From a virus (taxonomy: Duplodnaviria; Caudoviricetes): a stretch of DNA of 64,000 bases. The position numbers and the translations under genes are program-made. Below the pieces are notes generated by a model that saw nothing but the letters and a program-made list of their open reading frames with translations, had not been told where the DNA came from and searched no databases. The stretch lies in IMG/VR virus record IMGVR_UViG_3300022752_000014; one strand, written 5' to 3'. Shown in pieces: positions 23,841 through 25,304 of this stretch (within the stretch, counting starts at the first letter, position 1; each line of letters opens with the position of its first letter).

Positions 23841-23870
23841 TTGACAGAAACCCTGTCAAACCCTTATAAT
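23841..23870 (+). promoter_or_regulatory. Sigma70-type promoter with inverted repeat
   Basis: TTGACA-18-TATAAT; TTGACAG-AAACC-CTGTCAA. Confidence 0.7.
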
Positions 23871-23892: not shown

Positions 23893-24105
23893 ATGACTCT
23901 CACAGCAAAATTCAAGAAAGACGTTCAAACTCTGCGTGGTGCAGCAAACGGCGAATTCTACCTTGATGTAAAGAATCCGAAACTCTACAAAAAGGTTCGT
24001 CGGTACTATGAGAATGAGGGTGTAGTATTTTCTGGTGATCCTCTGGATGATTATGAGATGCTTATGGAATACGTCGCTAGTGATCTTGAAGCGGTCGAAG
24101 CGTGA
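23893..24105 (+). CDS. Conserved hypothetical protein
   Basis: 70 aa. Confidence 0.7.
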   Translation: MTLTAKFKKDVQTLRGAANGEFYLDVKNPKLYKKVRRYYENEGVVFSGDPLDDYEMLMEYVASDLEAVEA

Positions 24106-24368
24106 TGAATGTAGTAAGAAAACCAACTGTTCTTATGGAGCGGTTTCCTTATCGTTATGTTCAGGTCGGTACTTTGGAAATCAATGGAAAACCTGATTGT
24201 CGAATTCAAAAAGTAGATTCCTATACTGGTCGTTATCGTGATATGTATCTCTGCGATAATGAGATGCAACTGATGACTGCTATGGAAGACTTTGATTATA
24301 CCTGTTGGTTAGATCCAGACAGGGTTCCTGCTTATGTGCAGGACGATGAAGACACGGATGGTCTATAA
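24102..24368 (+). CDS. Conserved hypothetical protein
   Basis: 88 aa, ERFPYRYVQVG. Confidence 0.7.
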   Translation: MMNVVRKPTVLMERFPYRYVQVGTLEINGKPDCRIQKVDSYTGRYRDMYLCDNEMQLMTAMEDFDYTCWLDPDRVPAYVQDDEDTDGL

Positions 24369-24394
24369 CAGCACTGGTCGGGAGCAAACCCCTT

Positions 24395-24622
24395 ATGGAA
24401 AAGTCTGATTTACTTCGGTGGATTGGAAATAGTCTTCTCATTATTGGTTATCAAATTATGCTATGGGGAGACTTTAAAAATGGTTTGTTGCTAAAATGTA
24501 TTGGAGGATTACTCACAGTACCTTTTGCGATCAAACTTAAACTTTGGGATGTGCTTTTCTTATGCGCTTTCTTTGGTATTTCCGAGATATCAAAATTATC
24601 CCAACTTTTCTTGGTTTCCTAA
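24395..24622 (+). CDS. Small multi-TM protein
   Basis: 75 aa, hydrophobic; GGAG SD. Confidence 0.6.
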   Translation: MEKSDLLRWIGNSLLIIGYQIMLWGDFKNGLLLKCIGGLLTVPFAIKLKLWDVLFLCAFFGISEISKLSQLFLVS

Positions 24623-24755
24623 AACCAAGTGGTGGAGTCAAGTATGACCCTATTATGAGTTTCTTGCTTCTCTCAAGAGCAAGTGGTGCGGATGGGACTC
24701 TCTCCCGCCTGGTTTCCAATTTCCAGTCAAAGAATTGGTGGCGAGCCTGAGTTAC
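24610..24755 (+). ncRNA. wcaG/manA-like structured RNA
   Basis: Three hairpins each followed by TGGYG; upstream of sugar-nucleotide genes. Confidence 0.5.
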
Positions 24756-24759
24756 CTAA

Positions 24760-24794
24760 GGTGGGTTGCATAAACCCACCTTTTTTAGTATAAT
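24760..24794 (+). promoter_or_regulatory. Fused terminator/promoter cassette, copy 1
   Basis: GGTGGGTT-GCATA-AACCCACC-T6; TTGCAT-17-TATAAT. Confidence 0.75.
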
Positions 24795-24812
24795 GACAAA
24801 AACTATATTCAT

Positions 24813-25304
24813 ATGAAAATCGGTTTTAACTGTAGTTGCTTTGATCTTTTTCACGCAGGGCACGTTACAATGCTCAAGATGGAAAAAGAAATGTGTGACT
24901 ATTTGAAGATAGCACTTCAGGTTGATCCGACAGTTGATAGACCAGGTTTAAAAAATAAACCAGTGCAGTCCATCTATGAAAGATATGCTCAGGTGCAAGG
25001 ATGTAAATATGTGGATGAGATACTTGTTTATGATTCAGAAGCAGATCTTTTGAATTTAATTAAAACTCAAACCTTTCACATTAGATTTTTGAGTGAGGAA
25101 TATAAGGATATTGATTTCACAGGTAAGCAATATTGTATTGATAACGATATTGAGATTTACTATCATCTGAGAAGGCATCAATATTCAACCACAGAACTCA
25201 GAAATCGTGTTTACGAACTTGAGAAAGCAAAAAGGGAAGAGAAAGATATTAAAGATATTTTACAGTATTCTCCAGAACTCTTAGAAAGATACGGACAAAA
25301 ATGA
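24813..25304 (+). CDS. Cytidylyltransferase (TagD-like)
   Basis: CFDLFHAGHV, STTELRNR. Confidence 0.85.
   Translation: MKIGFNCSCFDLFHAGHVTMLKMEKEMCDYLKIALQVDPTVDRPGLKNKPVQSIYERYAQVQGCKYVDEILVYDSEADLLNLIKTQTFHIRFLSEEYKDIDFTGKQYCIDNDIEIYYHLRRHQYSTTELRNRVYELEKAKREEKDIKDILQYSPELLERYGQK

Follow-up and report, generated by a model that had tools for sequence, protein, structure and literature searches.

Where does a wcaG RNA begin and end, and with what might it interact, when a gene for a small membrane protein appears to lie inside it? The question is raised by a locus in a 64,000-nucleotide (nt) stretch of virus DNA (IMG/VR virus record IMGVR_UViG_3300022752_000014; Duplodnaviria, Caudoviricetes), the whole of which is referred to here as the window. 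Weinberg et al. (2010, PMC2864571) described the wcaG motif as a marine and cyanophage riboswitch candidate that precedes exopolysaccharide or high-light genes, and no ligand, partner, function or later functional work since 2010 was found for it in the literature searched. A preliminary description of the locus, made from the letters alone, had recognized three hairpins that are each followed by TGGYG, likened them to wcaG and manA RNAs, and pictured one larger structure, located like an attenuator just before a terminator, that may loop out a 75-amino-acid (aa) open reading frame (ORF). All three hairpins are present (24610–24629 with TGGTGG from 24630, 24663–24683 with TGGTGC from 24684, and 24716–24738 with TGGCGA from 24739). 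Our analysis shows that they belong to a four-module RNA array on the plus strand (24350–24752), of which only the last two modules constitute the catalogued wcaG motif. The explanation favored here as a whole, in which this array also pairs with the 3′ ends of tRNAs, is suggested by sequence comparison and is held at somewhat less than even confidence.

A four-module RNA array containing the wcaG motif

The Rfam model RF01761 (wcaG) matches 24655–24752 on the plus strand over model positions 1–98 of 98, with 104 bits against a cut-off of 42 (E value 7e-21). This places the second and third hairpins of the preliminary description in the family far beyond chance and, since the locus is a genuine member of a known family, the core itself is not new. 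The core comprises module c (24657–24707) and module d (24709–24752) and consists of the P1 hairpin (24663–24683) followed by UGGUGC (24684–89), the P2 helix (24693–97/24703–07), and the P3 hairpin (24716–24738, stem 24716–21/24733–38) followed by UGGCGA (24739–44). Both conserved UGGYG motifs, two of which are indeed stated in the original description, are thereby present 3′ of P1 (UGGUG, 24684) and of P3 (UGGCG, 24739). The window shares with the published motif P1, UGGUGCGGAUGG, P2, the CUGG/CCAG pseudoknot, P3 and UGGCGAG, as well as the setting in a T4-like cyanophage upstream of exopolysaccharide-type genes, here a nucleotide-sugar cluster, as the preliminary description had noted. It differs in that the catalogued 98 nt correspond to modules c and d only, whereas the window adds two homologous upstream modules and a gene between them.

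Two pseudoknots are found in the core. The one between the P2–P3 linker (CUGG, 24709–12) and the P3 loop (CCAG, 24723–26) was annotated by Weinberg et al. and is already SS_cons_1 in their original alignment (PMC2864571); it is kept in 30 of 36 distinct sequences, and two loci (L027 and L074) have CGAG/CUCG in its place. The other pairs GAG (24657–59) with CUC in the P1 loop (24670–72). Here a complement of the three bases before UUU (GAG, AGG or UGG) opens the loop in 58 of 79 distinct sequences, compared with a shuffle mean of 20; this P1 pseudoknot covaries and is unmarked in the original wcaG alignment. The proposed likeness to manA was not borne out, as RF01745 gave no match at the gathering threshold in the 64 kb and none at E ≤ 10 in 24200–24900, and membership in that family was rejected. 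manA is likewise an orphan cyanophage RNA of the same 2010 survey, and some phages have both manA and wcaG. The first part of the wcaG core (P1 region) has a 91% identical counterpart of 34 nt in the T4-like vibriophage nt-1 (NC_021529.2, 94756–94789), which hints that the hairpin-UGG building block extends beyond cyanophages.

Modules a and b are homologous building blocks rather than catalogued wcaG members. Every module combines a hairpin with UGGYSG in single-stranded form and a short G/C helix, and c and d contain H-type pseudoknots as well. Module b (24610–24650, plus strand) begins with the first of the three hairpins, an 8-bp stem (24610–17/24622–29), and continues with UGGUGG (24630–35) and a small hairpin, GGaGUCA/UGACCC, at 24634–50; modules b, c and d share the arrangement UUU(U)C-stem-loop-stem-G directly before UGG. 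A pseudoknot in the module-b hairpin is unsupported (3 of 30, at chance level). Module a (24350–24392, plus strand) is made up of a hairpin (24350–53/24361–64) with the loop ACGGAUG, a 10-nt linker, UGGUCG (24375–80), and a GGG...CCC helix (24380–82/24390–92) that adjoins the start of the ORF. It represents a second hairpin type, characterized by a 4-bp stem, a loop NYGGRRN and a linker of 10–12 nt, in which the second loop position pairs with the linker base located 4 nt before UGG (C24355 with G24371 in the window). Covariation of this tertiary pair is perfect: in 154 distinct modules it is C-G 116 times, U-A 37 times and G-U once. The Rfam wcaG model misses both upstream modules. In the region of module b, RF01761 yields only an 18-bit partial match (24565–24644), and no second match was obtained at E ≤ 1 in L097 and L093, two loci that lack the ORF.

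The local structure was assessed in an alignment of 64 distinct ORF-carrying relatives covering 24342–24755. In this alignment 95% of the cells are paired and 21 pairs show compensatory changes, and none of 500 shuffles was as good. Compensatory changes affect all seven pairs of P1, five of the six pairs of P3, six of the eight pairs of the module-b stem, and one pair of P2 in addition to a G-C/G-U exchange; the middle pair of the module-a stem is U-A in 45 sequences and A-U in 18. The plus strand is identified as the RNA strand because G-U pairs occur on it (for example, U-G in 64 of 64 sequences, and G-C in 40 with G-U in 23).

IMG/VR was scanned for the wcaG core, and 108 loci had enough flanking sequence to be evaluated; since only the core was used in the scan, this sample is unbiased about upstream content. 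The two-motif core stood alone in three loci, while four motifs were present in 71 and five in 21. Copy number ranges from two to six, and the module orders a-b-c-d, b-a-c-d and a-c-b-d were all encountered. The layout of the window (module a, a gap of ~250 nt, then b, c and d) recurs in ~35 loci and a gapless a-b-c-d array in ~20, and the remaining loci have other module orders or other small genes between modules. Module b is kept after the ORF even where no wcaG core follows. Among named phages, arrays are found in S-SRM01 (with the layout of the window), S-PM2 and Syn9. No further module copies are present in the 64-kb window, in which each specific motif occurs once on the plus strand. 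Arrays of four modules in the order a-c-b′-d are carried by S-PM2 (L323, 780–1036) and by L101, L110, L148 and L192. In S-PM2 and several contigs the array is followed by a hairpin without a T run and by a tRNA gene ~90 nt downstream; such arrays are probably co-transcribed with the tRNAs and released by RNase P. A corresponding scan of bacterial genomes was discarded, since the core pattern is too loose in GC-rich genomes: 119 of 120 rows were chance matches. The only real one, L318, is a contig filed under a bacterial genome assembly that bears a full b-a-c-d array and is probably phage DNA binned into a metagenome-assembled genome (MAG).

As a rule, the 98 nt of the catalogue form the last part of a chain of four modules. 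Genes can be accommodated between these modules, and the chain closes at a terminator/promoter instead of merely running into a gene, an architecture that affects the choice of the construct to probe and of the transcript to map. The catalogued motif is exceeded in several respects, namely by the arrangement in four modules, the second type of hairpin and its tertiary pair, the pseudoknot of P1, the gene at a junction, the closing terminator/promoter and the complementarity to tRNA 3′ ends; none of these was found in the literature searched.

A membrane-protein gene at a module junction

The ORF between modules a and b (24395–24622, plus strand) is a genuine protein-coding gene. It encodes a three-helix membrane protein that matches phrog_2318, shows a coding signature with codon-position entropies of 0.57, 0.25 and 0.89, and has homologues in more than 280 viral contigs that are 84–96% identical. 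An AlphaFold model of the 75-aa protein (predicted local distance difference test score 82) has three or four helices. No match was found in the PDB at E ≤ 0.001 or in Pfam at E ≤ 10, and the ESM Atlas returned only DUF6552-like phage proteins. A reading of the protein as a SemiSWEET/PQ-loop-type sugar transporter was rejected for want of any Pfam or PDB match. This real gene is left unannotated in S-SRM01. Hypothetical proteins are annotated over the wcaG RNA itself in public phage records, namely QPX48260.1 in S-SRM01 (MW015081.1; L321, 2746–3254) and gp208 in Syn9 (L322, 829–987), and these are spurious.

The preliminary description had suggested searching for relatives without the ORF, and such relatives exist: modules a and b are adjacent in ~20 arrays. 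In one of them, L097, the flanks are contiguous, with the 47 nt of the window up to ...CCCCUU followed by a 25-nt hairpin plus linker and then by UGGUGGAGUCAA... A covariance model, R1, was built from 17 ORF-less a-b pairs only and run on the 64-kb window, where it produced just two matches, located exactly at the flanks of the ORF. The first (24345–24438, 45.6 bits, E value 7.5e-8) is good over model positions 1–50, and the second (24581–24653, 29.6 bits, E value 1.7e-4) covers positions 70–99. With R1 matching nothing but the ORF flanks, the proposal that a larger RNA contains the ORF holds. The idea of a loop within a single fold does not, as the ORF lies at the junction of independent modules and is not looped out by base pairs.

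Two long-range helices had been proposed to enclose the ORF, namely ACTGG (24373–77) with CCAGT (24723–27) and ACACGG (24352–57) with CTGAGT (24747–52). The complementarity is real, perfect in the former and imperfect in the latter, but it is not accompanied by covariation. In the 64 relatives 77% of the cells of these helices are paired, their covariation is 0.043 versus 0.042 in shuffled alignments, and 205 of 500 shuffles were as good. Both helices are also absent from the minimum-free-energy fold of 24342–24795 and were rejected. The bases concerned have local partners or roles instead: ACGG lies in the loop of the hairpin at 24350–24364, CUGG (24374) opens the fourth UGGYSG, and CCAG takes part in the wcaG pseudoknot. 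The same fold pairs AUUGGAAA in the ORF (24421–24431) with UUUCCAAU in the 5′ arm of P3 (24713–24722), a pairing that is probably due to chance because its ORF side is constrained by coding.

Gene and RNA are interleaved at both ends of the ORF. Its final codons overlap the module-b hairpin, within which the stop codon lies, and its C-terminal residues vary with the hairpin type (LFLVS, LFLVQSN, LYISPGTT, LTFPNLFVN and LFATDGR); since the end of the ORF changes with the type of hairpin, it is the RNA hairpin that dictates the end of the protein. The window-type module-b hairpin is retained in the ORF-less loci L159, L174 and L200, and ORF-less forms have either hairpin type. A ribosome terminating on the ORF would be expected to unwind module b. 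At the other end, the sole Shine–Dalgarno-like sequence before the AUG of the ORF, with a 10-nt spacer (24380–24397), is the GGGAG that forms part of module a's small helix, and folding or unfolding of this helix could therefore gate translation of the nested gene. Small genes also occur between modules b and c in L084, L094, L099, L111 and L192, where they encode a ~110-aa cupin-like protein or a conserved ~85-aa protein. The module junctions are general insertion points.

Complementarity of the module tails to tRNA 3′ ends

The conserved bases after each hairpin, here called tails a to d, begin with UGGY, which is complementary to the RCCA end of tRNAs. Partners were sought among 29 tRNAs from one Synechococcus MAG, which serves as a proxy for the host, and the pairing was compared with 2000 shuffles and with all 2071 TGG sites of the window. 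Tail c, UGGUGCGGAUGGG (24684–96), forms 13 pairs, all of them Watson–Crick, with tRNA-Leu(CAG), the gene of which ends in ...CCCAUCCGCA and is completed by CCA (10 of 2000 shuffles as good); the partner strand ends in ...CAUCCGCACCA. Tail b, UGGUGGAGUCAAG (24630–42), forms 13 pairs, including one G-U, with tRNA-Ala(GGC) (1 of 2000). The remaining tails gave shorter matches, with nine pairs between tail a, UGGUCGGGA, and tRNA-Pro(CGG) (34 of 2000) and eight between tail d, UGGCGAGC, and tRNA-Arg(CCG) (211 of 2000). Variants of the tails include UGGUGUGG, UGGUGGAUCC and UGGCGUGCAUGG. Tail c is the sole TGG site of the window with 13 Watson–Crick pairs, the runner-up having 10, and when G-U pairs are allowed tails b and c are the best two of the 2071 sites.

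In the family of the proxy host, all 30 of 30 genomes share an identical tRNA-Leu(CAG) 3′ end, which small changes turn into ...CAUCCGCA in more distant relatives; the 3′ end of tRNA-Ala(GGC) is kept in at least 30 of 41 genomes. The tRNA-Leu(CAG) genes do not encode CCA, so the match of tail c includes a triplet that is added after transcription, which argues for a relation at the level of RNA and against homology to an attachment site. UGGUGCGGAUGGG is moreover the most conserved segment, and it is complementary to picocyanobacterial tRNA-Leu(CAG) at the mature 3′ end, which is invariant. Arrays adjoin tRNA genes or directly precede one, as in S-PM2. All four candidate tRNAs read codons ending in G or C, and most of the phage's ten tRNAs have U at the wobble position.

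These matches suggest that the array may be a multivalent RNA whose tails base-pair with certain host tRNAs at their mature 3′ ends. In such a scheme UGG would pair with CCA, Y with the discriminator purine, and the bases that follow with the 3′ acceptor strand. Tail c would have tRNA-Leu(CAG) as its candidate partner and tail b tRNA-Ala(GGC); the candidates for tails a and d, tRNA-Pro(CGG) and tRNA-Arg(CCG), are weaker. All four serve G/C-ending codons typical of Synechococcus, whereas the phage supplies tRNAs of its own for other codons. Binding might either sequester the tRNAs, as a decoy, or report uncharged 3′ ends in the manner of a T-box. Every tail runs into the 5′ arm of the small helix that belongs to it (P2, or in module b the small hairpin), and binding would accordingly disrupt this helix. 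We regard this mechanism as tentative, with about one chance in three of being correct, and place it ahead of a platform for protein and of a metabolite riboswitch. The wider claim that wcaG arrays in general serve as multivalent antisense traps or sensors for CCA-bearing host tRNA ends (Leu-CAG, Ala-GGC, perhaps Pro-CGG and Arg-CCG), by which the AT-rich phage with its own tRNAs could damp or monitor host-type translation, goes further still, and we consider it doubtful. If true, it would point to a new means by which phages disturb or read out the host tRNA pool, provide an RNA ligand for an orphan riboswitch candidate, and add a second natural class of RNA that reads tRNA 3′ ends beside the T-box.

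The T-box comparison concerns a possible mode of working and not family membership, and RF00230 gave no match in either Rfam scan (the 64-kb window and 24200–24900). As in a T-box, a single-stranded UGGY stands next to a helix, is complementary to RCCA and lies upstream of a terminator, and in the leading hypothesis free tRNA 3′ ends would likewise be read. In contrast to a T-box, the array has no Stem I, specifier loop or antiterminator bulge, its complementarity is 13 nt long and reaches into the acceptor and T stems, where a T-box pairs over 4 nt, it offers four sites for different tRNAs, and it belongs to a cyanophage and not to Firmicutes. The primer-binding sites of retroviruses and long terminal repeat retrotransposons start with UGG and are antisense to a host tRNA in its mature form, over the last 13–18 nt and with the non-encoded CCA included. 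The array tails share the UGG start and the antisense relation to a mature host tRNA end with its CCA. They differ in that no reverse transcriptase is evident and that the array is a structured RNA of a double-stranded DNA phage.

Several observations weigh against pairing with tRNAs. Tails a and d do not rise clearly above the background of shuffled sequences, and no perfect Watson–Crick tRNA partner exists for tail b or tail d in 101 genomes of the host family, so that host tRNAs were rejected as perfect partners of these two tails. A pairing of 13 bases needs a melted tRNA acceptor stem, and part of the tails is already taken up by P2 and by the small module-b hairpin. Tail c hardly varies, G-rich tails share their composition with G-rich acceptor 5′ strands, and the proxy MAG from which the tRNAs were taken may not represent the host. 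The neighboring genes count on the same side. The first genes downstream of 99 arrays fall into 26 families, with epimerases/dehydratases (40) and cytidylyltransferases (14) among them, and nucleotide-sugar enzymes account for 54 of the 99. Such neighbors are unexplained by an interaction with tRNAs, whereas a sensor of a metabolite or a protein would explain them.

A protein might indeed be what the array holds. Weinberg et al. suggested in their Additional file 1 that the duplicated UGGYG motifs might be bound by a dimeric protein (PMC2864571), and each hairpin with its UGGYG could accordingly bind one subunit of a dimeric or oligomeric RNA-binding protein of host or phage, thereby controlling stability, termination or translation, for instance of the ORF that has GGGAG in module a. 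The variable number (2–6) and order of the modules recall protein-titrating RNAs, and a module adjoins a start codon in a minority of loci. No candidate protein emerged, however: the conserved upstream genes phrog_481 and phrog_552 accompany only ~69% of arrays and have no known RNA-binding domain. A protein platform also leaves unexplained why the conserved bases after UGGY complement tRNA 3′ ends, and we consider it rather unlikely.

Terminator, competing explanations and genomic setting

The array is closed on its 3′ side by an intrinsic terminator that doubles as a putative promoter (24758–24794, plus strand). The terminator has its stem at 24758–82 and a T run at 24781–86; TTGCAT (24766–71) in its loop is separated by 17 nt from TATAAT (24789–94). 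An intrinsic terminator ends 89 of 100 distinct arrays and is followed within 24 nt by a TATAAT-like box in 76 of these 89, and the terminator loops are nearly always TTGCAT, TTGACA or TTTACA. The other 11 arrays adjoin a start codon, within ~10–30 nt. Given the consensus promoter at 23841–23870, the array probably marks where a short early transcription unit ends. A conserved antiterminator pairing of wcaG with its own terminator was sought in 111 loci and not found. The window has a possible wcaG-terminator duplex, CCCGCCU:AGGUGGG, of −13.1 kcal/mol; over all 111 loci, pairing with the 5′ arm of the own terminator is no stronger than with foreign arms (−9.68 versus −9.48 kcal/mol, p = 0.36). 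The terminator foreseen in the preliminary description is therefore real (24758–24782), but the attenuation attributed to it finds no counterpart in a preference for pairing with the own terminator.

These results bear directly on whether the wcaG core is the aptamer of a metabolite riboswitch or attenuator, which would respond to a small molecule such as a sugar nucleotide by adjusting how far transcription passes the terminator (24758–24788) into the sugar genes, with the upstream modules as extra aptamers. The near-invariant junction bases, the two pseudoknots and P2 suggest a compact fold, wcaG is listed as a riboswitch candidate (PMC2864571), and both the terminators or start codons after the arrays and the predominance of nucleotide-sugar enzymes among the first downstream genes are in keeping with such a device. 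Nevertheless, the terminator lies outside the motif, the sequences of spacer and stem vary freely, and the own terminator is no better a partner than a foreign one. The terminator also bears its own −35 and −10 boxes, so that the downstream genes can be transcribed without the RNA; a variable number and order of modules with genes between them is unusual for an aptamer, and no ligand was found in the literature searched, 16 years after the description. We consider a metabolite riboswitch unlikely.

The closing element, in which a stem-loop with a T run is joined to TTGCAT-17-TATAAT at the edge of a variable gene island, resembles the PeSL (promoter-early stem-loop), a composite terminator/promoter of T4-like phages (Arbiol 2010, PMC2839356; Comeau 2014, PMC4122927). 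A terminator stem-loop, −35 and −10 boxes 17 nt apart and a position at the edge of variable genes are all recognizable in the sequence at 24758–24794, which makes it a putative counterpart. Only this post-array element is comparable, and the RNA modules themselves are not PeSLs; cyanophages were not found mentioned in the PeSL paper (PMC4122927). That modules and terminator/promoter are no more than DNA substrates for recombination, shuffling small genes in a hyperplastic region like PeSL cassettes, would fit the genes present or absent exactly between modules, the PeSL-like element and the 26 families of downstream genes, but is very improbable, given that compensatory changes, strand-specific G-U pairs, pseudoknots and loop-linker covariation show selection on RNA structure, that module order is largely fixed, and that the match to a non-encoded CCA argues for a relation at the RNA level.

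On its upstream side the array is preceded by a sigma-70-type promoter (23841–23870, plus strand) that matches the consensus TTGACA-18-TATAAT in 12 of 12 hexamer positions and would drive the short early unit closed by the array. Between promoter and ORF lies a conserved 88-aa cyanophage gene (24102–24368, plus strand; match to phrog_481, E value 3e-41), the last codons of which encode the module-a hairpin. Of 97 loci, 67 have a homologue of this gene whose end lies no more than ~1.1 kb before the array; as it accompanies only these, the gene was rejected as an obligatory partner of the array. Downstream of the terminator, the nucleotide-sugar cluster opens with a cytidylyltransferase gene (24813–25304, plus strand; Pfam PF01467). 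The window is T4-like cyanophage DNA in which Rfam recognizes ten tRNAs, a PhotoRC-II RNA, a glutamine riboswitch and one wcaG RNA, and its closest isolates are Synechococcus phages with ~73% DNA identity. Synechococcus phages or cyanophages make up 88 of the 92 wcaG-bearing phage records, and Prochlorococcus phages two.

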